A model generated the notes under the pieces. That model was not told the origin of the DNA, searched no databases, and was given only the letters and a program-made list of their open reading frames with translations. A stretch of DNA of 64,000 nucleotides, from NCBI RefSeq assembly GCF_003018115.1, contig NZ_CP027457.1; one strand, 5' to 3'. This DNA comes from Escherichia coli. GTDB lineage: Bacteria > Pseudomonadota > Gammaproteobacteria > Enterobacterales > Enterobacteriaceae. Below, piece by piece: positions 2,454 to 26,694 of this stretch. The stretch's first letter is position 1, and each line of letters begins with the position of its first letter. The position numbers and the translations under genes are program-made.

Positions 2454-2934
2454 CGGCAGTACCGCGAAACAACCCAAGCCAGTAAGTGGGGAAATAACAC
2501 TGGCAGCCACTGAAAGATGAACCTCCAGCCTTATGGCAAAAAAGATTCTTTGTGGTGGCGGACTGATGGAAAGACATCGGTTATTGCAGAGGCCATTCAA
2601 TGAGTGGTCTCGACAATGGCTTATACCCTACACGGGATAACTTAATTGATATCCTTTTTAACGGATAAAGGCATTTCAGCCTGACATAGCCATGCGCCGT
2701 ATCGTCGCCGTATTCCTGCATTAACAGAGACCGCAGCCCGACAGGGAGACTCCTCTGCGAGAGTGTGCGGGGATAATCAAAAACGATACACACCGGGGTT
2801 TACCGCGTTAACGGAGCGCGGCGTTGTCCCCTCATGGTCGCTGGTCCGGTGCGATGGTGGAAGAAACTGGATTTTGTTGCAACTGATAACCATTATCATT
2901 TTACGGGTCCTTTCCGGCGATCCAGGCCGTTACG

Positions 2935-2946: not shown

Positions 2947-3121
2947 CGCGGGTTTTCGCTATTTATGAAAATTTTCCGGGGAAAATCATGTCGGTACTTC
3001 TCGAACATAACTATTTGTTTTTTCTAATATCGAATCCGTAAAGGTCCGACATGAAAACGCCTGAAAAAGTCATTTTCGGGCACTTTCATGTCGGACCCTG
3101 TATTTGTTGTGAGACTGTTTC

Positions 3122-3641
3122 ATGAAGGTTAATAAAAAGAAACTTGCCGAAATTTTCAACGTGGATCCGCGAACGATTGAACGCTGGCAGTCTCAGGGGC
3201 TCCCTTGCGTCTCCGGAGGTGGTAAGGGCGTTGAATCTGTATTTGATACCGCCACGGCAATTCAGTGGTATGCGCAGAGGGAAGCTGATATCGAAAATGA
3301 AAAACTCCGTAAAGAGGTTGAGGATTACAGGGCTGCCAGCGAGGCAGATCTCCAGCCTGGGACTATTGAGTACGAACGCCATCGACTTACGCGTGCGCAG
3401 GCTGACGCCCAGGAGCTGAAGAATGCCAGAGACTCCGCAGAAGTGGTGGAAACCGCATTCTGTACTTTCGTGCTGTCACGGATCGCAGGTGAAATTGCCA
3501 GTATTCTTGACGGGATCCCTCTCTCAGTACAGCGGCGTTTTCCGGAACTGGAAAACCGACATGTTGATTTCCTGAAACGGGATATTATCAAAGCCATGAA
3601 CAAAGCAGCCGCGCTGGATGAACTGATACCGGGGTTGCTGA

Positions 3642-3667
<26 letters not shown>
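3122..3667 (+). CDS. Nu1: Terminase small subunit
   Basis: 181-aa product near-identical by recall to lambda Nu1. Confidence 0.95.
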
Positions 3668-7348
<3,681 letters not shown>

Positions 7349-7368
<20 letters not shown>

Positions 7369-8668
7369 TCTCCCGCATATTGCCAGCATGGCCTTTAATG
7401 AGCCGCTGATGCTTGAACCCGCCTATGCGCGGGTTTTCTTTTGTGCACTTGCAGGCCAGCTTGGGATCAGCCGCCTGACGGATGCAGTATCCGGCGACAG
7501 CCTGACTGCCGGAGAGGCACCCGCGGCGCTGGCGTTATCCGTTGATGATGACGGACCACGACAGGCCCGCAGTTATCAGGTCATGAACGGCATCGCCGTG
7601 CTGCCGGTGTCCGGCACGCTGGTCAGCCGGACGCGGGCGCTGCAGCCGTATTCGGGGATGAGCGGTTACAACGGCATTATCGCCCGTCTGCAACAGGCTG
7701 CCAGCGACCCGATGGTGGACGGCATTCTGCTCGATATGGACACGCCCGGTGGAATGGTGGCAGGGGCATTTGACTGCGCTGACATCATCGCCCGTGTGCG
7801 TGACATAAAGCCGGTATGGGCGCTGGCCAACGACATGAACTGCAGTGCAGGTCAGCTGCTTGCCAGCGCCGCCTCCCGGCGTCTGGTCACGCAGACCGCC
7901 CGGACAGGCTCCATCGGCGTCATGATGGCTCACAGTAATTACGGCGCTGCGCTGGAGAAACAGGGCGTGGAAATCACGCTGATTTACAGCGGCAGCCATA
8001 AGGTGGATGGCAACCCCTACAGCCATCTACCGGATGATGTCCGGGAAACACTGCAGTCCCGGATGGATGCAACCCGCCGGATGTTTGCACAGAAGGTATC
8101 GGCATATACCGGCCTGTCCGTGCAGGCTGTGCTGGATACCGAGGCTGCAGTGTACAGCGGTCAGGAGGCCATTGATGCCGGACTGGCTGATGAACTTGTT
8201 AACAGTACCGATGCGATCACCGTCATGCGTGATGCACTGGATGCACGTAAATCCCGTCTCTCAGGAGGGCGAATGACCAAAGAGACTCAATCAACAACGG
8301 TTTCAGCCACTGCTTCGCAGGCTGACGTTACTGACGTGGTGCCAGCGACGGAGGGCGAGAACGCCAGCGCGGCGCAGCCGGACGTGAACGCGCAGATCAC
8401 CGCAGCGGTTGCGGCAGAAAACAGTCGCATTATGGGGATCCTCAACTGTGAGGAGGCTCACGGACGCGAAGAACAGGCACGCGTGCTGGCCGAAACCCCT
8501 GGTATGACCGTGGAAACGGCCCGCCGCATTCTGGCAGCTGCACCACAGAGTGCACAGGCGCGCAGTGACACTGCGCTGGATCGTCTGATGCAGGGGGCAC
8601 CGGCACCGCTGGCTGCAGGTAACCCGGCATCTGATGCCGTTAACGATTTGCTGAACACACCAGTGTAA
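7349..8668 (+). CDS. C: Head maturation protease / minor capsid protein C (GTG start)
   Basis: In-frame internal start of track ORF 7214..8668; product matches lambda gpC. Confidence 0.9.
8273..8668 (+). CDS. Nu3: Capsid scaffolding protein Nu3, nested in-frame in 3' part of C
   Basis: Internal ATG (MTKETQ...) in the C frame, as for lambda Nu3. Confidence 0.7.
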   Translation: MTKETQSTTVSATASQADVTDVVPATEGENASAAQPDVNAQITAAVAAENSRIMGILNCEEAHGREEQARVLAETPGMTVETARRILAAAPQSAQARSDTALDRLMQGAPAPLAAGNPASDAVNDLLNTPV

Positions 8669-8677
8669 GGGATGTTT

Positions 8678-9010
8678 ATGACGAGCAAAGAAACCTTTAC
8701 CCATTACCAGCCGCTGGGCAACAGTGACCCGGCACATACCGCAACCGCGCCCGGCGGACTGAGTGCGAAAGCGCCTGCAATGACCCCGTTGATGCTGGAC
8801 ACCTCCACTCGTAAGCTGGTTGCGTGGGATGGCACCACCGACGGTGCTGCCGTTGGCATTCTGGCGGTTGCTGCTGACCAGACCAGCACCACGCTGACGT
8901 TCTACAAGTCCGGCACGTTCCGTTATGAGGATGTCCTCTGGCCGGAGGCTGCCAGCGACGAGACGAAAAAACGGACCGCGTTTGCCGGAACGGCAATCAG
9001 CATCGTTTAA
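8678..9010 (+). CDS. D: Head decoration protein D
   Basis: Product matches lambda gpD. Confidence 0.9.
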
Positions 9011-9030
9011 CCTGACCCTTCATCACTAAG

Positions 9031-9051
9031 GCCGCCTGTGCGGCTTTTTTT
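9031..9051 (+). terminator. Hairpin plus T run between D and E (possible attenuator)
   Basis: gccgcctgtgcggc hairpin followed by T run. Confidence 0.4.
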
Positions 9052-9064
9052 ACGGGATTTTTTT

Positions 9065-10090
9065 ATGTCGATGTACACAACCGCCCAGCTGCTGGCGGCA
9101 AATGAGCAGAAATTTAAGTTTGATCCGCTGTTTCTGCGTCTTTTTTTCCGTGAGAGCTATCCCTTCACCACGGAGAAAGTCTATCTCTCACAAATTCCTG
9201 GACTGGTAAACATGGCGCTGTACGTTTCGCCGATTGTTTCCGGTGAGGTTATCCGTTCCCGTGGCGGCTCCACCTCTGAATTTACGCCGGGATATGTCAA
9301 GCCGAAGCATGAGGTGAATCCCCAGATGACCCTGCGTCGCCTGCCGGATGAAGATCCACAGAATCTGGCGGACCCGGCTTACCGCCGCCGTCGCATCATC
9401 CTGCAGAACATGCGAGACGAAGAGCTGGCCATTGCTCAGGTCGAAGAGATGCAGGCAGTTTCTGCCGTGCTTAAGGGCAAATACACCATGACCGGTGAAG
9501 CCTTCGATCCGGTTGAGGTGGATATGGGCCGCAGTGAGGAGAATAACATCACGCAGTCCGGCGGCACGGAGTGGAGCAAGCGTGACAAGTCCACGTATGA
9601 CCCGACCGACGATATCGAAGCCTGCGCGCTGAACGCCAGCGGTGTGGTGAATATCATCGTGTTCGATCCGAAAGGCTGGGCGCTGTTCCGTTCCTTCAAA
9701 GCCGTCAGGGAGAAGCTGGATACCCGTCGTGGCTCTCATTCCGAGCTGGAGACAGCGGTGAAAGACCTGGGTAAAGCGGTGTCCTATAAGGGGATGTATG
9801 GCGATGTGGCCATCGTCGTGTATTCCGGACAGTACGTGGAAAATGGTGTCAAAAATAACTTCCTGCCGGACAACACAATGGTGCTGGGGAACACTCAGGC
9901 ACGCGGTCTGCGCACCTATGGCTGCATTCAGGATGCGGACGCACAGCGCGAAGGCATTAACGCCTCTTCCCGTTACCCGAAAAACTGGGTGACCACCGGC
10001 GATCCGGCGCGAGAGTTCACCATGATTCAGTCAGCACCGCTGATGCTGCTGGCTGACCCTGATGAGTTCGTGTCCGTACAACTGGCGTAA
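9065..10090 (+). CDS. E: Major capsid protein E
   Basis: Internal Met of track ORF 9038..10090; 341-aa product matches lambda gpE. Confidence 0.97.
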   Translation: MSMYTTAQLLAANEQKFKFDPLFLRLFFRESYPFTTEKVYLSQIPGLVNMALYVSPIVSGEVIRSRGGSTSEFTPGYVKPKHEVNPQMTLRRLPDEDPQNLADPAYRRRRIILQNMRDEELAIAQVEEMQAVSAVLKGKYTMTGEAFDPVEVDMGRSEENNITQSGGTEWSKRDKSTYDPTDDIEACALNASGVVNIIVFDPKGWALFRSFKAVREKLDTRRGSHSELETAVKDLGKAVSYKGMYGDVAIVVYSGQYVENGVKNNFLPDNTMVLGNTQARGLRTYGCIQDADAQREGINASSRYPKNWVTTGDPAREFTMIQSAPLMLLADPDEFVSVQLA

Positions 10091-10131
10091 TCATGGCCCT
10101 TCGGGGCCATTGTTTCTCTGTGGAGGAGTCC

Positions 10132-11486: not shown

Positions 11487-11878
11487 AACATACTGATATT
11501 CGTGCCGCAGTGCTGGATGCACTCGAGCAGCATGAACACGGGGCGACGCTGTTTGATGGTCGCCCCGTTGTTTTTGACGAAGAGGATTTTCCCGCGATCG
11601 CGGTTTATCTGACGGATGCAGAGTATACCGGTGAAGAGCTGGATGCAGATACCTGGCGGGCCACACTGCATATTGAGGTGTTTTTACCGGCACAGGTACC
11701 GGATTCAGAGCTTGATCTGTGGATGGAAAGCCGGATTTACCCGGCGATAACTGCGATCCCGGCACTGGCGGGCATGATTACCGCGATGGTTACGCAGGGC
11801 TATGAGTATCGTCGTGATGACGATATGGCATTGTGGAGTTCTGCAGATCTGACTTATTCCATTACATACGAGATGTGA
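11483..11878 (+). CDS. U: Tail terminator protein U
   Basis: Product matches lambda gpU. Confidence 0.9.
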
Positions 11879-11885
11879 GGACGAT

Positions 11886-12635
11886 ATGGCAACACCAAAT
11901 CCCCTGGAGCCGGTAAAAGGTGCCGGTACCACACTGTGGGTTTACACCGGCAAGGGTGATGCTTATGCAAACCCGTTGTCAGACGATGAGTGGACGCGCC
12001 TGGCAAAAATAAAAGATCTGACCCCCGGCGAGATGACGGCAGAATCCTACGATGATAACTATCTGGATGATGAGGATGCTGACTGGGTATCCACCGGGCA
12101 GGGGCAGAAATCTGCCGGTGACACCAGTTTTACGCTGGCCTGGAAGCCGGGCGAGAAAGGGCAGCGCGATTTGATTGCCTGGTTTGACAGCAGTGAGAGC
12201 CGGGCCTACAAAATCCGTTTCCCGAATGGCACGGTGGATGTGTTTCGTGGCTGGGTGAGCGCCATTGGTAAAGCGGTGACCGCCAAAGAGGTGATCACCC
12301 GTACGGTAAAAATCACCAATATCGGTCGTCCGTCGCTGGCGGAAGATCAGGGGGACATCACACCGGTCACCGGTATTACCGTGACGCCACCAACGGGCAA
12401 TGTGGCAAAAGGTCAGAATATCACCCTGACCGTGGCTGTTCAGCCGGAAGGGGCGACGGATAAAACCTTCCGCGCCACGTCGGCGAATCAGAATTTTGCG
12501 ACCATTACCGTGAAAGGGAACACGATCACGGTGAAAGGTGTTGCGGCCGGTAAAGCGCAGATCCCTGTTGTCACCGGCAATGGTGAGTTTGCGGCGGTGG
12601 CGGAGATCACCGTCACGGATGGCGCTGCAGGCTGA
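11886..12635 (+). CDS. V: Major tail tube protein V
   Basis: Product matches lambda gpV. Confidence 0.95.
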
Positions 12636-12650
12636 GAGGGGAGATAAAGC

Positions 12651-13082
12651 ATGTTTCTGAAAACAGAACAATTTGAATATAACGGTGTGTCTGTCACGCT
12701 TTCTGAGCTGTCTGCGCTGCAGCGTATTGAGCATCTTGCCCTCCTGAAACGGCGGGCAGAAGAGGCAGAAGCCAGCGGCAACCTGCAGGTGAGCGTGGAA
12801 GACCTTGTCAGAACCGGGGCGTTTCTGGTGGCGATGTCCCTGTGGCATAACCATCCACAGAAAACGCAGTCACCGTCAATGAATGAGGCCGTGATGAAGA
12901 TAGAGCAGGAAGTGCTCACCACCTGGCCTGCCGATGCCATTGCCCGGGCGGAAGACGTTGTGTTGTGCCTGTCCGGGATGATCGAAGCTGTTCGTCCGGA
13001 TACTGATATTACTGAAGTGGCGAAAAATAACACGCTGACTGATGATGATTTTTCTGCGGGAAAGTCTTCGACGGCGAGCTGA
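12651..13082 (+). CDS. G: Tail assembly chaperone G
   Basis: Product matches lambda gpG. Confidence 0.9.
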   Translation: MFLKTEQFEYNGVSVTLSELSALQRIEHLALLKRRAEEAEASGNLQVSVEDLVRTGAFLVAMSLWHNHPQKTQSPSMNEAVMKIEQEVLTTWPADAIARAEDVVLCLSGMIEAVRPDTDITEVAKNNTLTDDDFSAGKSSTAS

Positions 13083-13522
13083 ACTTTGCCCTCAGACTGG
13101 CGCGTGAGATGGGGAGACCCGACTGGCGCGCCATGCTTGCCGGGATGACATCCACCGAATATGCCGACTGGCGACGTTTTTACCGCACGCATTATTTTCA
13201 CGATACCCAGCTGGATATGCATTTTTCCGGGCTGACGTACGCCGTACTCAGCCTGTTTTTATACGATCCGGATATGCATCCCTCGGATTTCAGTCTGCTT
13301 GTCCCCCGGCGTGAGGAAGCGCAGACGGAGAGGCCGGATGAGGAAGACATGCTGATGCAGAAAGCGGCAGGACTTGCCGGAGGCGTCCGGTTCGGCGGGG
13401 AGGGCGGGGGCGATATTTCACCTTCTGCGGATGTGGTGGATGTCAGCGAGGATGATGTCGCATTAATGATGGCTTCTGCGGGGATTTCCGGAGGTGTGAG
13501 ATATGTCCCAGCCGGTTGGTGA
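12651..13522 (+). CDS. GT: Tail assembly chaperone G-T fusion made by programmed -1 frameshift
   Basis: Slippery heptamer G GGA AAG near 13058..13064 at end of G; T frame (track ORF 13109..13522) is open in the -1 frame from the slip site; matches the lambda G/GT arrangement. Confidence 0.7.
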
Positions 13523-16082
13523 TCTTGTTATTGACCTGAGTCTGGATGCGGTCCGTTTCGATGAGCAGATGACCCGCGTAAGGCGTCATTTTTCAGGACT
13601 GGAGACTGACGCCAGAAAAACCGCCAGTGCTGTTGAGCAGGGGCTGAGCCGTCAGGCGCTGGCTGCACAAAAAGCCGGGATGTCCGTCGGGCAGTATAAA
13701 GCGGCCATGCGAACCCTGCCTGCACAGTTTACGGATATCGCCACGCAGCTTGCCGGTGGTCAGAATCCCTGGCTGATCCTGCTGCAACAGGGCGGTCAGG
13801 TGAAGGACTCCTTCGGCGGGATGATCCCCATGTTCAGGGGGCTCGCCGGTGCGATCACCCTGCCGATGGTCGGGGTCACCTCGCTGGCGGTGGCGACAGG
13901 TGCGCTGGTGTACGCCTGGTACCAGGGAGATTCCACGCTTTCAGCGTTTAATAAAACCCTGGTTCTTTCCGGTAATCAGTCCGGACTGACTGCCGATCGT
14001 ATGCTGACTCTCTCAAGAGCCGGGCAGGCAGCAGGGCTGACGTTTAACCAGGCGAGAGAGTCACTGGCAGCCCTGGTGAATGCCGGTGTGCGTGGTGGTG
14101 AACAGTTTGATGCCATCAACCAGAGTGTCGCGCGTTTTGCGTCTGCATCCGGTGTGGAGGTGGATAAAGTCGCTGAAGCCTTCGGGAAGCTGACCACTGA
14201 CCCGACGTCGGGACTGATGGCGATGGCGCGCCAGTTCCGTAACGTGACGGCAGAGCAGATTGCGTATGTTGCACAGCTGCAGCGTTCCGGAGACGAGGCC
14301 GGGGCATTGCAGGCGGCGAACGATATCGCCACGAAAGGCTTTGATGAGCAGACCCGTCGCCTGAAAGAAAACATGGGAACACTGGAGACCTGGGCGGATA
14401 AAACAGGGAAGGCATTCAAATCGATGTGGGATGCCATTCTGGATATCGGTCGTCCTGAATCCTCAGCGGATATGCTCGCCAGTGCGCAGAAGGCATTTGA
14501 TGAGGCGGATAAAAAATGGCAGTGGTACCAGAGCCGGAGCCAGCGCCGGGGAAAGACCTCCTCTTTTCGTGCGAACCTTCAGGGGGCATGGGATGACCGG
14601 GAAAATGCCCGTCTGGGTCTGGCAGCGGCCACGCTGCAGTCGGATATGGAAAAAGCCGGTGAACTGGCGGCAAGGGACCGGGCTGAGCGTGAGGCGTCAC
14701 AGCTGAAGTATACCGGAGAGGCGCAGAAGGCGTATGAGCGCCTGCAGACGCCGCTGGATAAATATACCGCCCGTCAGAAAGAGCTGAATAAGGCCCTGAA
14801 AGACGGAAAAATCCTGCAGGCGGATTACAACACGCTGATGGCGTCGGCGAAAAAGGATTATGAATCAACGCAGAAAAAACCGAAGTCGTCAGGTGTCAGA
14901 GTGTCAGCCGGGGAGCGTCAGGAAGACCGGGCGCATGCAGCCCTGCTGGCGCTTGAAACTGAGCTCCGGACGCTGGAGAAGCACAGCGGTGCGAATGAGA
15001 AAATCAGCCAGCAGCGCCGTGATTTATGGAAGGCGGAAAGTCAGTATGCGGTCCTGAAAGAGGCCGCCACGAAACGACAGTTATCCGGGCAGGAAAAATC
15101 CCTGCTGGCCCATGAGAAAGAGACGCTGGAGTACAAACGCCAGCTGGCTGAGCTGGGCGACAAGGTTGAATACCAGAAACGGCTGAATGAGCTGGCACAG
15201 CAGGCGGTGCGGTTTGAAGAGCAGCAGAGCGCGAAGCAGGCCGCCATCAGCGCAAAAGCCCGTGGTCTCACTGACCGTCAGGCGCAGCGGGAGTCTGAAG
15301 AGCAGCGTCTTCGTGACGTGTATGGCGATAATCCGCAGGCGCTGGCCCGGGTCACCGGGGCACTGAAACAGACATGGGCGGATGAAGACATGCTGCGCGG
15401 TGACTGGCTGGCCGGTCTGAAGTCCGGCTGGGGGGAGTGGACGGAAAGTGCGACGGACAGTTTTTCGCAGGTTAAAAGTGCTGCCACGCAGACCTTTGAC
15501 GGTATTGCACAGAATATGACGGCGATGCTGACCGGTGCAGAGGCAGACTGGCGGGGATTCACCCGTTCGGTGCTGTCCATGATGACAGAAATCCTGCTTA
15601 AACAGGCCATGGTGGGCATTGTCGGGCGTATCGGCAGCGCCATTGGTGGTGCTTTCGGTGGTGGGGCGTCTGCCTCCACGGGGACGGCCATTGAGGCTGC
15701 GGCGGCGAACTTCCATTTTGCGACCGGCGGATTTACGGGCACGGGCGGCAAATATGAGCCTGCGGGGATAGTTCACCGCGGGGAGTTTGTTTTCACGAAG
15801 GAGGCAACCAGCCGGATAGGCGTGGGGAATCTTTACCGTCTGATGCGCGGCTATGCGGAAGGGGGGTATGTGGGTGGTGCCGGAAGTCCGGCGCAGATGC
15901 GGCGGGCGGAAGGTATTAATTTTAATCAGAACAATCACGTGGTGATTCAGAACGACGGTATCAACGGACAGGCGGGGCCGCAGCTGATGAAGGCGGTGTA
16001 TGACATGGCCCGCAAGGGGGCGCAGGATGAGCTCCGGCTGCAGTTGCGTGATGGCGGTATGTTATCAGGGAGCGGGCGATGA
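13503..16082 (+). CDS. H: Tail tape measure protein H
   Basis: 859-aa product matches lambda gpH. Confidence 0.95.
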   Translation: MSQPVGDLVIDLSLDAVRFDEQMTRVRRHFSGLETDARKTASAVEQGLSRQALAAQKAGMSVGQYKAAMRTLPAQFTDIATQLAGGQNPWLILLQQGGQVKDSFGGMIPMFRGLAGAITLPMVGVTSLAVATGALVYAWYQGDSTLSAFNKTLVLSGNQSGLTADRMLTLSRAGQAAGLTFNQARESLAALVNAGVRGGEQFDAINQSVARFASASGVEVDKVAEAFGKLTTDPTSGLMAMARQFRNVTAEQIAYVAQLQRSGDEAGALQAANDIATKGFDEQTRRLKENMGTLETWADKTGKAFKSMWDAILDIGRPESSADMLASAQKAFDEADKKWQWYQSRSQRRGKTSSFRANLQGAWDDRENARLGLAAATLQSDMEKAGELAARDRAEREASQLKYTGEAQKAYERLQTPLDKYTARQKELNKALKDGKILQADYNTLMASAKKDYESTQKKPKSSGVRVSAGERQEDRAHAALLALETELRTLEKHSGANEKISQQRRDLWKAESQYAVLKEAATKRQLSGQEKSLLAHEKETLEYKRQLAELGDKVEYQKRLNELAQQAVRFEEQQSAKQAAISAKARGLTDRQAQRESEEQRLRDVYGDNPQALARVTGALKQTWADEDMLRGDWLAGLKSGWGEWTESATDSFSQVKSAATQTFDGIAQNMTAMLTGAEADWRGFTRSVLSMMTEILLKQAMVGIVGRIGSAIGGAFGGGASASTGTAIEAAAANFHFATGGFTGTGGKYEPAGIVHRGEFVFTKEATSRIGVGNLYRLMRGYAEGGYVGGAGSPAQMRRAEGINFNQNNHVVIQNDGINGQAGPQLMKAVYDMARKGAQDELRLQLRDGGMLSGSGR

Positions 16083-16408
16083 AAACCTTTCGCTGGAAAG
16101 TGAAGCCGGATATGGAGGTGAACTCGCAGCCATCGGTGCGTGAAGTGCGTTTTGGTGACGGGTACTCACAGCGTATGGCGGCAGGGCTGAATGCTGACCT
16201 GAAAACATACCGGGTGATGCTTTCCGTGACCCGGGAGGAGGCCCGGCATCTGGAAGCGTTCCTGGCAGAGCACGGGGGCTGGAAGGCATTTTTGTGGAAG
16301 CCACCCTATGCATACCGGCAGATAAAGGTGACCTGTGCCGGGTGGTCTGCGCGGGTCGGGATGTTGCGCGTTGAGTTCAGCGCGGAGTTTAAGCAGGTGG
16401 TGAACTGA
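16079..16408 (+). CDS. M: Tail tip protein M
   Basis: Product matches lambda gpM. Confidence 0.9.
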   Translation: MKTFRWKVKPDMEVNSQPSVREVRFGDGYSQRMAAGLNADLKTYRVMLSVTREEARHLEAFLAEHGGWKAFLWKPPYAYRQIKVTCAGWSARVGMLRVEFSAEFKQVVN

Positions 16409-17106
16409 TGCAGGATATTCACGAAGAAAGCCTGAACGAGTCGGTTAAGTCAGAGCAGTCACCGCGGGTGGTGCTCTGGGAAATCGACCTGACGGTGCAG
16501 GGCGGTGAGCGGTATTTTTTCTGCAATGAGCTGAATGAAAAAGGGGAGCCGGTGACCTGGCAGGGGCGTGAATATCAGGCGTACCCGATTGAGGGCAGCG
16601 GCTTTGAGATGAACGGAAAGGGCAGCAGTGCCCGCCCGTCGCTGACAGTGTCCAATCTTTTCGGCCTTGTCACCGGGATGGCGGAGGATTTGCAGAGCCT
16701 GGTGGGGGCCACGGTGGTCCGCCGCCGGGTGTATGCGCGTTTTCTGGATGCGGTGAATTTTGTGGCGGGGAATCCGGAGGCCGACCCGGAGCAGGAGCTG
16801 ACGGACCGGTGGGTGGTGGAGCAGATGTCAGCGCTGACGGCCATGACGGCCTCGTTTGTGCTGGCGACACCGACGGAGACGGACGGTGCGCTGTTTCCCG
16901 GTCGCATCATGCTGGCGAACACCTGTATGTGGGATTACCGGGGCGATGAATGCGGGTATAACGGTCCGGCAGTGGCGGATGAGTTCGACAACCCCACCAC
17001 GGATATCCGGAAGGACAGATGCAGTAAATGCATGCGCGGGTGTGAGATGCGCGGCATGGTGGCTAATTTCGGCGGTTTCCTTTCCATTAATAAACTTTCG
17101 CAGTAA
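16408..17106 (+). CDS. L: Tail tip protein L
   Basis: Product matches lambda gpL. Confidence 0.9.
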   Translation: MQDIHEESLNESVKSEQSPRVVLWEIDLTVQGGERYFFCNELNEKGEPVTWQGREYQAYPIEGSGFEMNGKGSSARPSLTVSNLFGLVTGMAEDLQSLVGATVVRRRVYARFLDAVNFVAGNPEADPEQELTDRWVVEQMSALTAMTASFVLATPTETDGALFPGRIMLANTCMWDYRGDECGYNGPAVADEFDNPTTDIRKDRCSKCMRGCEMRGMVANFGGFLSINKLSQ

Positions 17107-17116
17107 ATCCCGTTTT

Positions 17117-17860
17117 ATGACACAGACTGAATCAGCGATTCTGGCGCATGCCCGGCGGTGTGTGCCAGCGGAGTCGTGCGGCTTCGTGATAAGCACCCCG
17201 GAGGGCGAACGGTACCAGCCCTGCGTGAATATCTCCGCAGAGCCGGAGGCGTATTTTCGTATTGCGCCGGAAGACTGGCTGCAGGCACAGATGCAGGGGG
17301 AGATTGTGGCGCTGGTCCACAGTCATCCCGGTGGTCTGCCCTGGCTGAGCGAGGCGGACCGGCGGCTGCAGATAAAGAGTGCCCTGCCCTGGTGGCTGGT
17401 CTGCCGGGGTGAAATTCACCGGTTCCGCTGTGTGCCGCACCTGACCGGACGGCGCTTTGAACACGGTGTGACGGACTGTTACACCCTGTTCCGGGATGCA
17501 TACCATCTGGCGGGGATTGAGATGCCGGATTTTCATCGCGAGGATGACTGGTGGCGCAACGGTCAGAACCTGTACCTGGACAACCTGGCGGAAAACGGCT
17601 TTTGCCGGGTGTCTCCGTCCTGTGCACAGGCAGGCGATATTCTGCTGTGCTGCTTTGGTTCATCGGTGCCGAATCATGCCGCCATTTACTGTGGCAACGG
17701 TGAACTGCTTCACCATATACCTGAACAACTGAGTAAACGGGAGAGGTATTCTGAAAAATGGCAACGACGAACGCATTCTGTCTGGCGTCACCGCCACTGG
17801 TCCGCATCTGCCTTCACGGGGATTTACAACGATTTGGTCGCCGCATCAGTCTGTATGTGA
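17117..17860 (+). CDS. K: Tail tip assembly protein K (JAMM/MPN-like HSHPGG motif; NlpC/P60-like C-terminal region)
   Basis: Internal ATG of track ORF 16856..17860; product matches lambda gpK; true start uncertain (reference lambda annotation uses a shorter form). Confidence 0.75.
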   Translation: MTQTESAILAHARRCVPAESCGFVISTPEGERYQPCVNISAEPEAYFRIAPEDWLQAQMQGEIVALVHSHPGGLPWLSEADRRLQIKSALPWWLVCRGEIHRFRCVPHLTGRRFEHGVTDCYTLFRDAYHLAGIEMPDFHREDDWWRNGQNLYLDNLAENGFCRVSPSCAQAGDILLCCFGSSVPNHAAIYCGNGELLHHIPEQLSKRERYSEKWQRRTHSVWRHRHWSASAFTGIYNDLVAASVCM

Positions 17861-18438
17861 ACACGGCAGCGGAGGCCATCCGTGCCCTGTCGCTGCAGGT
17901 GCCGGGATTCCGCTGTCAGATGAACGAAGGCTGGTACCAGATACGTATTGCCGGTGAGGATACCGCGCCGGAGGTGGTGTATGCCCGTCTTCATGAACCG
18001 CTGAGCGGGAGGGCCGTGATTCATATTGTACCGAGGCTGGCAGGGGCCGGGGGAAATGGTGTTTTTCAGGTGGTGCTGGGGGCTGCAGCCATCGTGGGCT
18101 CTTTCTTCACCGCCGGTGCAACGATGGCGTTGTGGGGCGCAGCCCTGAGTGCCGGAGGGCTGACTGCCACCACGATGCTGTTCTCACTGGGTGCCAGCAT
18201 GATACTGGGTGGTGTGGCCCAGATGCTGGCCCCGAAGGCAAAGACGCCGGAATACAAAAGTACGGATAACGGTAAACAGAACACGTATTTTTCGTCACTG
18301 GACAACATGATTGCTCAGGGTAACCCGATGCCGGTGCCTTACGGTGAAATGCTGGTTGGTTCACGACGGATATCCCAGGACATCAGCACCCGTGATGAGG
18401 GCGGAGACGGGAAAGTGGTGGTTATCGGGCGGGGATAA
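17758..18438 (+). CDS. I: Tail tip assembly protein I
   Basis: Product matches lambda gpI; overlaps K 3' end as in lambda. Confidence 0.9.
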   Translation: MATTNAFCLASPPLVRICLHGDLQRFGRRISLYVNTAAEAIRALSLQVPGFRCQMNEGWYQIRIAGEDTAPEVVYARLHEPLSGRAVIHIVPRLAGAGGNGVFQVVLGAAAIVGSFFTAGATMALWGAALSAGGLTATTMLFSLGASMILGGVAQMLAPKAKTPEYKSTDNGKQNTYFSSLDNMIAQGNPMPVPYGEMLVGSRRISQDISTRDEGGDGKVVVIGRG

Positions 18439-18678
18439 AAATAAAAAAATCCCGCAGAGTTAGCGGAGCTGCGGGAGAGAACGATGAAGATTAACGTTAT
18501 GGAGTTATTTTTCAGGCATCAAAAATGTAACGCAGCGTCATTATTGCGGCTACAGGCAATTGCCGGAAATGTGAAGAGTTTCAGAAATTTTATTCCGTCA
18601 TGACACAGGCACCCTCCGGGGTGCCTGTTGTTTTCTGGCATAAACAGATTCAGACATCAGACAGGAGAGGGGGACAGA

Positions 18679-21600
18679 GTGGGTAAAGGGGGCGGCAAGG
18701 GGCACACACCGCGTGAGGCGAAGGACAATCTCAAATCCACGCAGATGATGAGCGTGATTGATGCCATTGGTGAGGGACCGGTGGAAGGTCCGGTGAAGGG
18801 ACTGCAGAGTATTCTGGTGAACAAAACCCCGCTGACGGACACGGACGGTAATCCCGTGATACACGGTGTGACCGCCGTCTGGCGTGCCGGGGAGCAGGAG
18901 CAGACACCACCTGAAGGCTTTGAGTCCTCCGGGGCGGAAACCGCACTGGGCGTGGAGGTGTCGAAGGCAAAGCCGGTGACGCGCACCATCACGTCAGCGA
19001 ACATTGACCGTCTGCGGGTCACCTTCGGGGTGCAGTCACTGGTGGAGACCACCTCAAAGGGTGACCGTAATCCCTCTTCTGTCCGGCTGCTGATTCAGCT
19101 TGAGCGTAATGGTAACTGGGTGACGGAGAAGGATGTCACCATTAACGGCAAGACCACCTCGCAGTACCTGACGTCGGTGATTCTGAATAATCTCCCTGAG
19201 CGCCCCTTTAACATCCGGGTGGTCAGGGTGACGGCGGACAGTACCACGGACCAGCTGCAGAACAGAACGCTGTGGTCGTCATACACCGAAATCATCGATG
19301 TGAAACAGTGCTACCCGAACACGGCCATTGTGGGGCTGCAGGTGGATGCGGAGCAGTTCGGTGGCCAGCAGATGGTGGTGAACTACCATATCCGCGGCCG
19401 CATCATTCAGGTGCCGTCAAACTATGACCCGGAAAAACGCACCTACAGCGGTATCTGGGACGGGAGTCTGAAACCGGCATACAGCAATAACCCGGCCTGG
19501 TGCCTGTGGGACATGCTGACTCACCCGCGCTACGGGATGGGAAAACGCCTGGGGGCCGCGGATGTGGACAAGTGGGCGCTGTATGCCATCGGGCAGTACT
19601 GCGACCAGACGGTCCCGGATGGTTTCGGGGGCACAGAGCCGCGGATGACCTTTAATGCGTACCTGTCACAGCAGCGTAAGGTGTGGGATGTCCTGGGGGA
19701 TTTCTGCTCGGCGATGCGCTGTATGCCGGTATGGAACGGTCAGACGCTGACGTTCGTTCAGGACCGTCCGTCGGATGTGGTGTGGCCGTACACGAACAGC
19801 GATGTGGTGGTGGATGATAACGGCGTGGGGTTCCGCTACAGCTTCAGTGCCCTGAAGGACCGGCACACGGCGGTGGAGGTGAATTACACCGACCCGCAGA
19901 ACGGCTGGCAGACTTCCACGGAACTGGTGGAAGACCCGGATGCCATCCTGCGCTACGGGCGCAACCTGCTGAAGATGGATGCGTTCGGCTGTACCAGCCG
20001 CGGTCAGGCCCACCGTGCCGGACTGTGGGTGATAAAGACAGAACTGCTGGAAACGCAGACGGTGGATTTCACGCTCGGGTCTCAGGGGCTGCGGCACACA
20101 CCCGGTGACATCATTGAAATCTGTGATAACGACTATGCCGGGACCCTGACCGGCGGACGCATCCTGTCCATCGATGCCGCCAGCCGCACACTGACGCTGG
20201 ACCGTGAGGTGACACTGCCGGAAGCAGGTACATCGACGGTGAACCTGATTAACGGCCGTGGTAAGCCGGTGCGCGTGGACATCACTGCACACCCCGCCCC
20301 TGACCGGATACAGGTCAGCGTCCTGCCTGATGGCGTGGCGACATACGGTGTGTGGGGACTCTCCCTGTCGTCACTGCGTCGTCGCCTGTTCCGCTGTGTT
20401 TCCATCCGGGAAAACACGGACGGCACCTTTGCCATCACGGCGGTGCAGCACGTACCGGAAAAAGAAGCCATTGTGGATAACGGGGCCCGCTTTGAGCCGA
20501 TGTCCGGCTCACTGAACAGCGTCATCCCGCCGGCAGTGCAGCACCTCACGGTGGAGGTGAGTGCCTCAGACGGCCAGTATCTGGCGCTGGCGAAATGGGA
20601 CACGCCGCGGGTGGTGAAGGGCGTGCGTTTCAGTCTGCGCCTGACCAGCGGAAACGGTGAAAACAGCCGCCTGGTGACCAGCGCCATCACGGCGGACACG
20701 GAGCACCGTTTCAGTGGCCTGCCTCTGGGGGAATACACCCTGACGGTCAGGGCGATAAACAGCTATGGCCAGCAGGGCGAACCTGCCACCACCACATTCC
20801 GGATTAATGCACCGGCGGCACCGGCCAGCATTGAACTGACGCCGGGCTATTTTCAGATAACGGTGGTCCCGCATCCTGCGGTGTATGACCCGACGGTACA
20901 GTATGAATTCTGGTTCTCAGAAAAACGCATCACGGACACGGCACAGGTGGAAACCTCAGCCCGTTATCTGGGTACCGACAGCCAGTGGAGCGTCTCCGGC
21001 CCGCACATTAAGCCGGGGAAGGATTTCTGGTTTTATGTGCGCAGCGTCAACCTGGTGGGGAAATCTGCGTTTGTGGAGGCCAGCGGGCAGGCCAGCAATG
21101 ATGGTGAAGGGTATCTGGAAATTTTCCGTGGGCTGATAGATGAGGCGCTGCTGGGGAAGGCACTGAAAGAGCGTATTGATGCGTCAGCCCTGCGTACTGA
21201 GGTCACGCAACTGGAAGAAGACATCCGCCAGCGGCTGGAGACGGATGTTGCGGAAGTGACCCGAAAAATAGGGGAGGCGGAAAACAGCCTCACGCAGCTG
21301 GTTGCGAAAAAGAATGAGGACCAGACGCTGGCCATCGCGCAGGTGAGTCAGCAGGTGGACCGGGTGAGCAGTGAAATCACACAGACAGTCAGCCAGAGCA
21401 CGGAGGAAAACGCCAGGCAGATAGCGCAGGTCCGCCAGTACGTGGATGACAAAGGGAGTGAAATCACCTCGACCACGGATAAAAAGCTGGAAGACCAGAG
21501 CGCGACCATACAGCAGATACAGCAGGTCCAGTCAGACACGAATGATGAGCTGGCAGCGCTGTACATGCTGAAGGTGCAGAAAACGAAAAACGGCATTCCG

Positions 21601-22374
21601 TATGTTGCCGGTATTGGTGCGGGGATTGAGGATGCTGATGGCCGGACGCTGAGCAATATTCTGCTGCAGGCGGACCGTATCGCGATGATTACCCCGGAGA
21701 ACGGCAACACCACGCCGCTGTTTGTGGCGCAGGGGAACCAGCTGTTCATGAACGACGTGTTCCTGAAGCGACTGTTTGCGGTGAGTATCACGTCATCCGG
21801 CAATCCCCCGACGTTCTCCCTGACGCCGGAGGGCAGGCTGACAGCCCGCAATGCGGATATCAGCGGAGCTGTTACAGCGAATTCTGGCACGCTCAATAAT
21901 GTCACCATTAACGAGAACTGTGTCATCAGAGGGAAACTGTCTGCGAACCAGATTGAAGGCGATCTGGTGAAGACGGTGGGGAAAGCCTTTCCCCGGAATA
22001 ACAGTTATGCCCGTGGCACGATAACCGTCACGGTTTACGATGACCAGGGCTTCGACCGGCAGATTATCATTCCACCGGTGCTGTTTCGTGGGACGAAACA
22101 CCAGAACGTCAACAGCCCGAATCAGCAGTCGTACTGGTATTCAACCTGTAAGCTGCAGGTGCTGAAAAACGGGGCAGAGATTTTTCATGAACCGGCAACG
22201 GATGTCAGCCGGGTGTTCTCATCGGTGATTGACATGCCAGCAGGACGGGGTCATGTCACCCTGACGTTTAATGTGTCGTCTACCGGCGCGAACAACTGGA
22301 CACCGACGACGTACATCAGTGATTTACTGGTTGTGGTGATGAAAAAATCCACGGCGGGAATCAGTATCAGCTGA
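18679..22374 (+). CDS. J: Central tail fibre / host specificity protein J (GTG start), about 1231 aa
   Basis: In-frame GTG with GGAGAGG motif upstream inside track ORF 18628..22374; N-terminal three-quarters match lambda gpJ; distal region diverges. Confidence 0.9.
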
Positions 22375-22391
22375 CGGTTTATTAACCCGGA

Positions 22392-22418
22392 CGGGCACCC
22401 GAAGTGGTGCCTTTTTTA
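22392..22418 (+). terminator. Rho-independent terminator after J
   Basis: gggcacc..ggtgcc hairpin followed by T run. Confidence 0.6.
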
Positions 22419-22442
22419 TTGACTGAAAACAAAGAGGTAATC

Positions 22443-23066
22443 ATGCGGTATTTATACGGAGCCATTTTATTTTTTACTACCCTGCCGGCAGTAATGACTT
22501 TTCCTGCACAGGCTGCAGGCGGACACGGTGCATTTTCCGTGGGATATGCTCAGGTTCACCCGGGCGGCGTGCCGGTATTGTCCGGTACCGGTGCCCGTAC
22601 AGGTGATTTAAAAGGGATCAACGTGAAATACCGTTATGAATTCACGGACCATCTGGGCGGCATAGCCTCGCTGAGTTACGCCTCTGCGAAAAAGAGCAGA
22701 ACCACGATGACCGGGGATAAGGCATTTCATTATGAAAGTCTGCGTGGCCGTTATGTGAGCCTGATGGCGGGGCCGGTCTGGCAGGTCAGTGAGCAGCTCA
22801 GCCTTTATGGCATGGCCGGGATGGCGCACACCCGCTGGTCTGACAGTGTTCAGGATTACCGGCGTGATGAAGTGACACCGGGGGATGTCAGGGTGACCAC
22901 CACTGCCAGTGATGGCCATTCTGCACGTCATCTGACGCTGGCATGGGGGGCAGGGCTTCAGTTTAATCCGGCGGATACGGTGGCGGTTGATCTTGCGTAC
23001 GAAGTGGCCGGTCATGGTGACTGGCGAACGGATGCGTTTATTGTTGGGATTGGATACCGTTTCTGA
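22443..23066 (+). CDS. lom: Outer membrane protein Lom (Ail/Lom family)
   Basis: Internal Met of track ORF 22404..23066; signal peptide; beta-barrel ending in F; matches lambda Lom. Confidence 0.85.
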   Translation: MRYLYGAILFFTTLPAVMTFPAQAAGGHGAFSVGYAQVHPGGVPVLSGTGARTGDLKGINVKYRYEFTDHLGGIASLSYASAKKSRTTMTGDKAFHYESLRGRYVSLMAGPVWQVSEQLSLYGMAGMAHTRWSDSVQDYRRDEVTPGDVRVTTTASDGHSARHLTLAWGAGLQFNPADTVAVDLAYEVAGHGDWRTDAFIVGIGYRF

Positions 23067-23170
23067 CGGCAGATACAGCTTTATCTTCTGTAAATATTGG
23101 TATAATGAGCATGTTCATCACACCTTATGGAGTGAACTGCGTCTGAGGAAACGTAAAGTTACACTGTCCT

Positions 23171-23200
23171 GAAGCCCGTGGCATTACTGCTGCGGGCTTT
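23171..23200 (+). terminator. Hairpin plus T run between lom and tail fibre gene
   Basis: gcccg..cgggc stem followed by T run; a TATAAT-like hexamer lies about 70 bp upstream. Confidence 0.4.
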
Positions 23201-23217
23201 TTTATTGGTGGAAAGGT

Positions 23218-25068
23218 ATGACGGTTAAAATTTCTGGTGTGCTGAAGGACGGGGCCGGTAAGCCGGTACCGGGATGCACGATAGAGCTGAAAGCGCGACG
23301 CACAACGGAGACGGTGATTGTCACCACGGTGGCGTATGGTCAGCCGGGGGAAACCGGCAGTTACAGTATGGATGTTGAGCCGGGTCTGTACCGGGTGACG
23401 CTGAACACGGAAGGGTACGCGCCGTCATATGTGGGTGACATTCTGGTGAAGGCGGAGTCTGCACCGGGAACGCTGAATAAATTTCTGATGGACCAGGAGG
23501 ACGCACAGTATTACCCGAAAGCCCTTGCAGAGCTGGAAGCGGTGGCCGCGGAAATCCTGAAACGTGCGGAAGCGTCAGCGGCGAGTGCAGAGGAAGCGAA
23601 GAAACGGGCAGAGAATGCGCGGGGACCGAAGGGGGATAAGGGAGACACCGGGCCACAGGGTATTCCCGGGCCAAAAGGCGATACCGGCGAGCGGGGGCCA
23701 AAGGGTGAGCGTGGTGAGAGGGGGCCGCAGGGGCTTCAGGGTGTGAAAGGTGAACGGGGAGAGAAGGGCGAAAAAGGCGAGCCGGGAGGACCGGATGCGA
23801 CGACGGCACAGAAGGGAATTGTGCAGTTAAGCAGCGCAACGGACAGTGATGATGAAACGAAGGCAGCCACCCCGAAAGCGGTGAAAGCGGCAATGGACAA
23901 AGCGGACGGATGCCTGGAGAAAGCGAAAAACGGTGACGATATCCCGGATAAGGTGCAGTTTCTGAACACTGTGGGAGCAGCCAGAGTATACGGGTGGGAC
24001 ATTCATACGGGGGCCGGTGAATGGACCACGAGCGAGTTTGTCGCCTGGCTGAAAGCCAAAGGGGCATTTGACCAGCCTTACTGGATGATGAAGGCATCAC
24101 TGCATGCGGGATTCAATAAGGTCATCACGGATGTCGGACCGGGAAAACTTAATCTGGGTGGCTGTGTCATTGAGGTGATGGGGAAGTATGAGGCAGCCAT
24201 AGTCCGGGTCACCATTGGCGAATACGGTGCAACGGGGTTTATTAATGGCACGGTCTGTACCTGTACGGTTTACGGCGACACACAGTATTTCCACTGGCGG
24301 GTGGATTACAGCACAAAAAACAAACCGGATACGGTCAGCCAGCGGGATGCCAGCACGACGCAGAAAGGTGTGGTGCAGTTAAGCAGTGATACTGGCAGTA
24401 ATGACGAAACAAAGGCAGCCACGCCGAAGGCCGTGAAGGCGGCAATGGATGTGGCAAATGAAGCGAAAACAAAGGCAGAAGAGGCTGCAGCAGGAGGTGG
24501 TGTTCCCGGTCCGAAAGGAGATAAAGGGGACACGGGGCCGGCAGGTCCGGCTGGGCCGGGGGGCCCTCAGGGACCAAAGGGGGATACTGGCGCTCCCGGG
24601 GCAAAAGGTGAGAAAGGAGCCACCGGCGCAACCGGGCCACAGGGAGCAAAAGGGGATAAAGGTGATCCCGGCCCTCAGGGACCAAAGGGGGATACTGGCG
24701 CTCCTGGGGCAAAAGGTGAGAAAGGAGCCACCGGCGCAACCGGGCCACAGGGACCAAAAGGGGATAAAGGTGATCCCGGTCCCCGGGGGGCAACAGGCCC
24801 ACAGGGACCAGCTGGCTCACCGGCAGGTGGTTTGCATGCTGTTGGGGCATTTGTCTTTGCTCAGGCCAGTATAAGTAACAGTGAAAAATATGCCGCAGGT
24901 GCCGTGCTTGCGGGAAGTAAACTGAGAGAATGTAGCATTCAACTGGGCTCTCAGAAAGCAGCCACATTAACCGGTAATACACTGCCAGGAACATGGCGGG
25001 TCTGTAGTCCACTTCAGGTCAGTTCAATATATCCTTACTGTGTGGGGCTGTTTCAGCGTATATCGTGA
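23218..25068 (+). CDS. stf: Side tail fibre protein with collagen-like Gly-X-Y domains (Stf-like)
   Basis: N-terminus resembles lambda Stf; two copies of a conserved fibre motif (KG-I/V-VQLSS...[10 protein letters not shown]); two collagen-like G-X-Y blocks. Confidence 0.8.
24568..24783 (+). repeat. Near-perfect tandem duplication (2 x 108 bp, 12 G-X-Y triplets each) inside the tail fibre gene
   Basis: Two adjacent 108-bp units differing at a handful of positions, in frame. Confidence 0.75.
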
Positions 25069-25335
25069 AGAGAACGACGGCAGTCAGGTGGGAACCGCCA
25101 GTGTAGCACGGTAAGGGGCAGGAAACGCTGAGCAGTGCAGATGAGATACAGGCATACAGGGGGGAGAAATAACAGACAAAAAGATGGGGGACCATCACCT
25201 CCCCCATGAACTGCGTTGATTATGTCATTATTGTGAAGGTATTCATTATGCCGGGTAAATAGTGCCACGGAAAAGTTAATTCCGGAAGTGACGGAACTCT
25301 CATTTTTCGTGCATCCTGTTGATATGGATGATTTT

Positions 25336-25665
25336 TCATATTTCCGGAAGTCCGTATTTTGCCCGGGCGCGGTTGCATGCTTCATTCGCGATGCCATTTT
25401 CTCCGGACATTGCAAATTCCCGGCATGTGGACGGACGGTTTTTGTAAACAGAGCAATATGCGTTTTCACCCGGAGTTCCCGCCAGAGCGACACATCGGGG
25501 ATTTTTCTGACTGGTGCCGCGCATACAGCGATGAAAGGGGGATATTTGCTCAGTGAGACTGACCGGAACCTTTCCGCCAGCATCGTCAGCTTCTGCCCAG
25601 TAAAAAGAGACGCGGAAAAATGCACAACAGGCACCACACGTCATGCATGGATTCGGATTGTTCAT
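25336..25665 (-). CDS. YkgJ/UPF0153-like protein with C-x2-C-x2-CC motif (putative metal-binding), prophage cargo
   Basis: 109-aa ORF with CMTCGACC motif and further conserved Cys; opposite strand to phage late genes; hairpin plus T run on minus strand just downstream (about 25185..25205). Confidence 0.55.
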
Positions 25666-25830
25666 TTTTATACTATTTGTTGTTTTTTCAGCGATCAGTT
25701 CAAAGGACGCTGAAAAAAAACATTCTCCAAAATTAAATTATAACTATTTGATTTTATGGATAGAGGCATGCTTTTTACGCAAAAGTAAAAAGCATGCCAA
25801 ATTTGCTATTAACTCTTTGAATATTCAGCA

Positions 25831-26694
25831 CTAATCATCTATTTCGGTTGCCTTCTTATTCAGCAGACGAGAAGCGCGCCAGTAAACCAGCAACATCAGG
25901 CCCATTACGATAGTCAGCGTAATGCTGGTGGCTGCACCAAACGGCCAGTCACGAATATTGAGGAACTGTACCTTGATGACGTTACCGATCAGCAGGTTTT
26001 TCGCACCGCCCATCAGGTCGGACACATAGAACAGGCCCATCGCTGGCAGCATCACCAGCAGACATCCGGCAATAATCCCCGGCATCGTCAGTGGAATAAT
26101 GATGCGGATAAAAGTCTGTAACTTGCTGGCACCGAGATCGCGCGCCGCCTCAAGCAACGGCTTATCCAGTTTTTCGATACTGGAGTACAGCGGCATCACC
26201 ATAAACGGTAGCAGAATGTAAACCAGACCGATAATCACCGCACTGGGCGTGAACATGATACGGATTGGTGTGTCGATAACGCCCAGCCAGAGCAAAAACT
26301 CGTTGAGATAGCCTTTGGTGCTGAGGAAAATTTTCAGCCCGTAGATGCGAATCAGTGAGTTGGTCCAGAAGGGAACAATCAGCAGAAACAGCAGCAGCGG
26401 ACGCACCTTGTGTGGCAGCTTCGCCAGAAACCAGGCAAACGGGTAGCCCAGCACCAGGCAGGCGAGAGTGGCGATCAGCGCCATATTCAGCGAGTGCAAT
26501 AGCACTTCAAAATAGAGCGGATCGAGCAGACGCGTGTAGTTATCCAGCGTAAAGACCATTTTGACGAAACTGGCGTCGTCGCGGGTCAAAAAGCTGGTGC
26601 CAATGATCATCAGGTTGGGCAGAAAGACAAACAACACAAGCCAACCGACAATAGTGACAATCACTACATTCTGGAACTTACTTGTGTTCTTCAT
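25831..26694 (-). CDS. potB: Spermidine/putrescine ABC transporter permease PotB
   Basis: 287-aa product matches E. coli PotB except the last few residues (ends KKATEIDD here). Confidence 0.93.

Follow-up and report, generated by a model that had tools for sequence, protein, structure and literature searches.

A collagen-like side tail fibre of a lambdoid Escherichia coli prophage with a length-variable stalk, a conserved tip domain and the remnant of a chaperone gene

INTRODUCTION

Collagen-like proteins encoded by prophages of enterohemorrhagic Escherichia coli (EHEC) were described by Ghosh et al. in 2012 under the names EPclA to EPclD, and are composed of PfN, coiled-coil, collagen, Pf2 and C-terminal domains (PMC3368898). 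Recombinant EPclA assembles into a trimer whose collagen forms a true triple helix, the lengths of the collagen vary among EPcl copies in multiples of three residues, and the C-termini of EPclC and EPclD are unrelated to the PfC domain (PF06820) (PMC3368898). Here we describe a related side tail fibre gene, located at positions 23218..25068 of a 64,000-nucleotide stretch of E. coli DNA (NCBI RefSeq assembly GCF_003018115.1, contig NZ_CP027457.1), which we call the window. A first-pass annotation made from the sequence alone had singled out this gene for its duplicated modules and for the lack of a tail fibre assembly gene behind it.

The reading that we favor, and that we hold to be probable with some reserve, is that the gene codes for a trimeric side fibre of the EPcl class that is still functional, with a collagen array that varies in length and a tip that was acquired on a cassette at the expense of the chaperone gene. 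We present the architecture of the fibre, the variation of its stalk, its tip domain and the replacement event, and then weigh whether the fibre works.

RESULTS

A mosaic member of the EPcl class. The gene product matches a tail fibre family (PHROG phrog_366, E 2e-124), and RefSeq names its relatives "prophage tail fiber N-terminal domain-containing protein." The gene lies directly 3′ of J (18628..22374) and lom (22404..23066), in the same order as in annotated relatives. J, lom and the fibre gene come last in the late region of a lambdoid prophage that lies between potB and potC and whose right end abuts potB, potA and pepT. The gene and its parts are as follows.

23218..25068, + strand, collagen-like side tail fibre gene of the EPcl class, 616 aa (open reading frame [ORF] list, PHROG, Pfam, RefSeq relatives)
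23218..23619, + strand, N-terminal attachment domain PfN (PF08400, phage_tail_N), residues 1-134 (Pfam, E 3.4e-40)
23620..23787, + strand, collagen block 1, residues 135-190, ending in a GEPGGPD interruption (Pfam Collagen, E 2e-9)
23800..23922, + strand, Phage_fiber_2 (Pf2) repeat copy 1, residues 195-235 (Pfam PF03406, E 2e-18)
23890..24333, + strand, shaft module like Mu tail fibre S, residues 225-372, between the Pf2 repeats (PDB sequence search)
24352..24477, + strand, Pf2 repeat copy 2, residues 379-420 (Pfam PF03406, E 3e-16)
24499..24825, + strand, collagen block 2, about 36 uninterrupted G-X-Y triplets, residues 428-536 (Pfam Collagen, two matches, 428-485 and 476-534)
24562..24779, + strand, tandem 2 x 108-bp in-frame repeat, 36-aa unit ending [A/P]KGDKGDP (Tandem Repeats Finder)
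24817..25065, + strand, C-terminal tip domain, small and all-beta, residues 534-616, 83 aa (homologues, alignments, AlphaFold2, BFVD, dN/dS)

The likeness of the N-terminus to that of lambda Stf, proposed in the first-pass annotation, is borne out by the PF08400 match and by tblastn, in which residues 1-99 of lambda Stf (orf-401) are 58.6% identical to the product of 23218..23508. Residues 1-91 are the equivalent of the lambda gpStfN collar domain (PDB 9e7m_Ta, E 5.5e-28), and by homology to gpStfN the PfN domain would anchor the fibre to the tail tip, where in Ur-lambda the collar domain contacts gpV/gpM (PMC12617516). The two copies of a fibre motif seen in the same annotation proved to be Pf2 repeats, about 80% identical to each other in DNA, and the Pf2 region of lambda Stf matches both. 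The module between them corresponds to residues 175-324 of the Mu tail fibre S/S′ structure (8ju3_A, E 1.4e-42). Pfam likewise recognized both predicted G-X-Y blocks as collagen, at 135-190 and 428-534, and interruptions of the GEPGGPD kind have already been described (PMC3368898). The stalk would consist of two collagen triple helices, the two Pf2 repeats and the Mu-S-like module.

On sequence grounds, the fibre belongs to the EPcl class of prophage collagen-like side tail fibres, with which it shares the PfN N-terminus, the collagen blocks, the Pf2 repeats, the location behind J and lom and a C-terminus other than PfC. It is neither EPclA nor EPclB, because Pfam found no PF06820 (PfC) in it. 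Its tip is 45% identical to that of the 467-aa fibre of E. coli 55989, a fibre which, matched by genome and length only, is presumably EC55989_1078, the EPclC* variant in PMC3368898. The fibre differs from the EPcl proteins in that its two Pf2 repeats surround a Mu-S-like module, an arrangement outside the four architectures described in the text of that paper, in that it lacks the PCoil region, and in that no DUF4376 gene follows it as one follows the 55989 fibre. It adds a new, mosaic member to a family that is already on record.

Three other systems invite comparison. With the lambda Stf/Tfa pair the fibre has in common the homologous collar domain, Pf2 repeats and the order J-lom-fibre, but its stalk is collagen where that of lambda is coiled coil, its tip and the gp37-like receptor-binding domain of lambda orf-314 are unrelated (a tblastn search of the fibre with orf-314 gave no significant match), and a Tfa gene is absent from the window. 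As to fibres chaperoned by DUF4376 proteins, relatives of the present fibre have a DUF4376 gene directly downstream, in the position of a fibre chaperone, whereas here an adjacent intact gene is missing and only a remnant is present. Finally, in BclA of Bacillus anthracis and in streptococcal Scl1/Scl2, G-X-Y arrays differ in copy number among strains and set filament length, and a C-terminal globular domain nucleates the trimer. The fibre is like these proteins in its strain-variable tandem G-X-Y array and C-terminal domain, but they reside on the surface of cells or spores and their terminal domains are unrelated, and in an NCBIfam scan the Scl/Lcl models matched the collagen part only, far under their cut-offs.

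The distal collagen array varies by whole repeat units. The annotation had placed a near-perfect 2 x 108-bp duplication at 24568..24783. The duplication is present, with borders a few bases off: Tandem Repeats Finder put it at 24562..24779 (period 108, 2.0 copies, 98% matches, score 422). Direct comparison of the units revealed mismatches at 2 of 108 positions (C/T at 24597 and G/C at 24646), in phase 0 with the ORF, and such a repeat is far above chance expectation.

Among 5,426 complete E. coli genomes, 35 contain the cassette that codes for the tip (24815..25125), with an identity of 98.7% or higher, and the fibres of seven of the 35 were fetched, translated and compared. Substantial differences among these seven were confined to collagen block 2, with flanks 98.7 to 100% identical. 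The alleles are as follows.

Two units of 36 aa, fibre of 616 aa: the window and RM10410
Three units of 36 aa, fibre of 652 aa: FORC_041
Four units of 36 aa, fibre of 688 aa: FWSEC0008
Irregular alleles, including a (KGD)n run, fibres of 643, 649 and 664 aa: 2013C-3181, NCCP 13905 and EH53

The irregular length variants were +3, +27, +33 and +48 aa. By coordinate arithmetic, an additional 108 bp, i.e., three units, is present in at least nine genomes, and three units is the commonest state. The repeat of this fibre thus expands and contracts, as the annotation had anticipated for an in-frame repeat: near-identical fibres in complete genomes carry two, three or four units, besides the irregular variants. 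This repeat-length polymorphism is of the kind already documented for EPcl proteins. The array may gain and lose whole 36-aa units through slippage or unequal recombination. Collagen rises 0.286 nm per residue, and one unit (36 residues x 0.286 nm) would represent about 10 nm of stalk.

The two-copy state of the window might itself be an assembly collapse of a three-copy array, which would be compatible with the other readings discussed below. Such a three-to-two collapse is possible because complete genomes most often have three units and short-read assemblies break at this place; the homologous L015 locus has a run of N, many "partial" proteins start inside the repeat, and the window fibre equals the FORC_041 fibre minus its middle 36-aa unit. 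We nevertheless consider it unlikely, since the two-copy allele occurs independently in the complete genomes RM10410 and JNEC-KY175 and the window is contiguous across 64 kb. In public data, short-read assemblies often break or leave N gaps in the collagen repeats of this fibre (L015 4770..4870; proteins P0001-P0003, P0012 and P0013), so that repeat copy numbers taken from them are unreliable. A 65-aa protein (P0004) considered as a sign of a broken gene was rejected as an artefact of the assembly gap in the L015 collagen region.

The C-terminus is a complete tip domain. The tip carries the motifs LHAVGxF, AGSxL, LPGTWRxC and GLFQRIS. It has no match in Pfam, in NCBIfam or among PDB sequences, and no solved structure. 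With the 83-aa tip alone as query, a word-index protein search turned up nothing but partial E. coli proteins, and tblastn against about 50,000 phage genomes gave nothing at E<=1e-3. An exhaustive HMMER search of 1.8 billion representatives retrieved three true relatives (P0009, P0010 and P0011) that are 44 to 48% identical and have the same terminal motif; two large repetitive proteins from that search (P0007 and P0008) were discarded as low-complexity false positives. A profile search yielded 66 proteins, with E values down to 1e-12 and beyond, most of which are small (115-165 aa), metagenomic and carry the signature AVGTY ... AGSSL ... LPGTWRCMGY ... LWLRIS at their extreme C-terminus. The tip domain family is thus far wider than E. 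coli prophages and absent from Pfam. Its members, about 60 homologues, end with the LWLRIS/LFQRIS motif at their own C-terminus, and an alignment of 50 sequences has invariant G33, G58, W60 and R81 and near-invariant G10, G28, L36, T59, R61, G64 and L78.

From this alignment AlphaFold2 modeled the tip as a six-stranded beta domain (pLDDT 85.3, pTM 0.75). In a Foldseek search of BFVD, the model aligned, at TMq 0.60-0.76, with tail fibres predicted for phages of Pseudomonas, Aeromonas, Roseobacter and Sinorhizobium; as modeled, the tip shares a compact beta fold with the tips of annotated phage tail fibres. Relative to the 77%-identical variant at L015 (73% nucleotide identity), the tip has a dN/dS of 0.12.

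The annotation had offered two explanations for this C-terminus, truncation or an intramolecular chaperone; the latter would be removed by cleavage, and a frameshifted tail may be added to the former. The lack of an external chaperone gene downstream would agree with either, but we regard them as highly improbable. There is no Peptidase_S74 signature and no other Pfam match in the C-terminus and, to our knowledge, the known CIMCD domains are longer than 83 aa. As for truncation, the fibre is full length relative to the homologues that end with the same motif; this, the confident beta model and the dN/dS of 0.12 together rule out a truncated or frameshifted tail. When the three frames of 24790..25340 were compared with an alternative tip and DUF4376 proteins, only a short DUF4376 tail was matched, and the other frames held nothing recognizable. 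The C-terminus is a complete, conserved tip domain under purifying selection.

Some homologues consist of a short N-terminal part and the tip, and are encoded as stand-alone small proteins (L011 5001..5366 and L013 5001..5465, 121 and 154 aa). One such gene shares its contig with a phiKZ-type capsid gene; another belongs to the tail module of a siphovirus, where it follows the genes for the tape measure and the tip protein.

A cassette has replaced the resident tip and most of a chaperone gene. As the annotation had stated, no tfa-like gene follows the fibre, and the next ORF of any size is on the opposite strand, where it codes for a YkgJ-family protein. Searches of the 64-kb window by tblastn with lambda Tfa and three DUF4376 chaperones returned a single 13-codon remnant (25122..25160), which matches the DUF4376 protein of L002. 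A tfa homologue elsewhere, which the annotation had left open, was found neither in the window nor in the whole 45-kb FORC_041 prophage.

The L002 locus, from strain 2015C-3121, is a homologous prophage at the same potB site, in which the fibre has a different tip and is followed by a 223-aa DUF4376 protein whose N-terminus matches tail fibre assembly PHROGs (phrog_136, E 1e-36). By blastn, homology between the window and L002 in this region is limited to 23190..24594 and 25118..25900, and resumes 63 bp before the DUF4376 stop codon. This delimits two features.

24595..25117, + strand, 523-bp cassette in place of 1,040 bp in L002 (blastn of the window against L002)
25118..25172, + strand, remnant of the 3′ end of a DUF4376 gene, 13-17 codons, ...SSADEIQAYRGEK* (tblastn, DNA alignment with L002)

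The gap in homology between 24594 and 25118 indicates that the 523-bp cassette replaced 1,040 bp comprising the resident tip together with almost all of the chaperone gene, whose remnant begins 50 bp past the fibre stop codon. The tip probably came in as one piece with the distal collagen and some 50 bp of sequence that trails it, and the incoming DNA would have spared the last 15 or so codons of the DUF4376 gene. Simple deletion of a cognate chaperone gene was considered and set aside: the remnant DNA is of the L002 type and not of the type of the 55989 gene that accompanies a related tip, and cassette replacement fits better.

In 33 of the 35 complete genomes, an ordinary coding sequence (CDS) is annotated over the cassette and its junction, and none of the seven fetched fibres has a pseudogene flag or a frameshift. 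The cassette occurs at three integration sites (potB, ompW and tRNA-Ser/hyaA), and the phage backbones that carry it differ, an Stx2a prophage being one of them. At L015, the closest of the diverged relatives, where the fibre has the 77%-identical tip, a DUF4376 gene is likewise absent; a hairpin lies directly 3′ of the fibre and is followed by chromosomal genes.

Other rearrangements were seen at these loci. In L002, a Hok/Gef toxin gene (2744..2884) takes the place of lom, between a frameshifted J and the fibre gene. In the ompW-site prophages L003, L006 and L007, two fragments come after the fibre cassette, one of a DinI-like pseudogene and the other a second, separate piece of a DUF4376 3′ end (locus positions ~5361..5811 or 3547..3997), which points to repeated rearrangement downstream of the fibre in these prophages. 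The FORC_041 prophage (L018, NZ_CP016628.1 2851300-2901000) is Stx2a converting and sits between potB and potC; the tail and fibre module of the window (11861..25800) is 96 to 99.6% identical to it, whereas the head genes of the window (~3100..10100) are lambda-like and unlike those of FORC_041. The window begins inside the prophage, so its stx status lies outside the view.

The fibre may function without a dedicated chaperone. In the mechanism that we propose, the last 83 residues would register the three chains at the fibre's C-terminal end and probably contact the receptor. By analogy with the PfC domain of EPclA (PMC3368898), the tip would start trimerization and the zippering of the collagen from that end. 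This tip subtype would fold without a dedicated chaperone, leaving the fibre functional.

Several observations weigh against this proposal. DUF4376 proteins are experimentally required fibre chaperones in the Alteromonas phages V22 (gp27) and A5 (gp9) (PMC7289586, PMC10579305). The tips that are about 45% identical to ours, in 55989/L014, L008 and L010, have a DUF4376 gene 8-11 bp downstream; the chaperones encoded there are alike along their full length and have a specific N-terminal region in common, which suggests that these tips and their DUF4376 proteins are cognate pairs. No chaperone of the 55989 type was detected at megablast sensitivity in the 35 cassette-bearing genomes, and FORC_041 lacks any tfa or DUF4376 gene over its entire prophage. 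With so little divergence among the 35 copies of the cassette, the fact that they are intact is a poor guide to selection, and the changes in the repeat are in frame by construction.

These observations feed a serious rival explanation, in which the fibre is orphaned and non-functional: the chaperone was lost by cassette replacement, the tip cannot trimerize, and the phage, if viable, adsorbs via J alone. Laboratory lambda, whose stf is frameshifted, adsorbs in just this manner. The remnant behind the stop codon, the pairing of the ~45%-identical tips with DUF4376 genes, the absence of a chaperone gene from the window and from FORC_041, a set of 35 copies too alike to display decay, and the dispensability of lambda side fibres (PMC12617516) all agree with such a loss. 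We find it doubtful all the same, since the dN/dS of 0.12 separates two chaperone-less lineages, a CDS is annotated in 33 of 35 genomes and all seven fetched fibres lack a pseudogene flag or frameshift despite a hypermutable repeat close by, and the cassette is found at three attachment sites and on different phage backbones.

Alternatively, a chaperone provided in trans by another prophage of the same cell could fold the fibre. Genomes of Shiga toxin-producing E. coli hold many DUF4376 genes. The E. coli genomes that match have fibre-related regions in a median of 2 and up to 11 places, several in most of them, and the C-terminal domain is common to all DUF4376 proteins compared (44-51% identity). 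The absence of the 55989/L014 type from 35 of 35 cassette-bearing genomes (megablast) makes this quite improbable, as does the N-terminal half of the common L002-type DUF4376, which is unrelated to that of the cognate type.

Returning to a fibre that folds on its own, we lean towards this autonomy of the tip because the tip is under purifying selection across two lineages that lack the chaperone (the window and L015), because the fetched ORFs are intact and the cassette is annotated as a CDS in nearly all genomes that carry it, because the cassette has spread among integration sites and phage backbones, and because the stand-alone tip homologues have a DUF4376 neighbor nowhere on record. More tentatively, the tip subtype of the window and L015 may have been freed from the need for DUF4376, with the collagen array (2-4 units, about 10 nm each) possibly acting as a fast-evolving length adjuster that tunes the reach of the side fibre to the surface layers of its hosts.

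Transcription signals and neighboring genes. Two further features lie downstream of the fibre.

25184..25207, no strand assigned, GC-rich hairpin between the convergent fibre and ykgJ genes (terminator scan, sequence comparison)
25336..25665, - strand, YkgJ-family cysteine-cluster gene, last prophage gene before potB (ORF, RefSeq annotation of relatives)

The hairpin is likewise found after the intact DUF4376 gene in L002. The product of the YkgJ-family gene has no PHROG or NCBIfam match, and the gene looks like a moron. Prophages at the potB site and at the tRNA-Ser/hyaA site have kept it beside the fibre or chaperone gene; in strain 55989 it carries a frameshift.

Upstream, strong terminator-like hairpins with T tracts flank lom on both sides (22393..22412 and 23171..23200, + strand). 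The second has a 13-bp stem and stops 18 bp short of the fibre start codon, and expression of the fibre therefore presumably requires antiterminated late transcription. A promoter scan of 22300..25900 found no sigma-70-like site near the fibre gene.

Long stop-free ORFs run antisense to the collagen-coding regions (23321..24100, - strand, 259 aa; 24335..25012, - strand, 225 aa). They are most likely by-products of the codon periodicity of G-X-Y repeats; the equivalent ORF in L015 (3895..4674, - strand) was called by a gene caller.

DISCUSSION

Two modest aspects of this fibre go beyond the literature. Its tip represents a large family of phage fibre tips without a Pfam entry or a solved structure, and tips that occur naturally in pairs with and without a DUF4376 gene offer a simple system for finding out when chaperones are needed. 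Lambdoid phages owe their host range and rate of adsorption in part to side tail fibres, and this fibre module bears on the spread of Shiga toxin genes because the same module sits on the Stx2a-converting prophage of FORC_041. If the fibre does combine a chaperone-free tip with a length adjuster, the tuning of side-fibre reach would extend to Stx2a-converting lambdoid phages.

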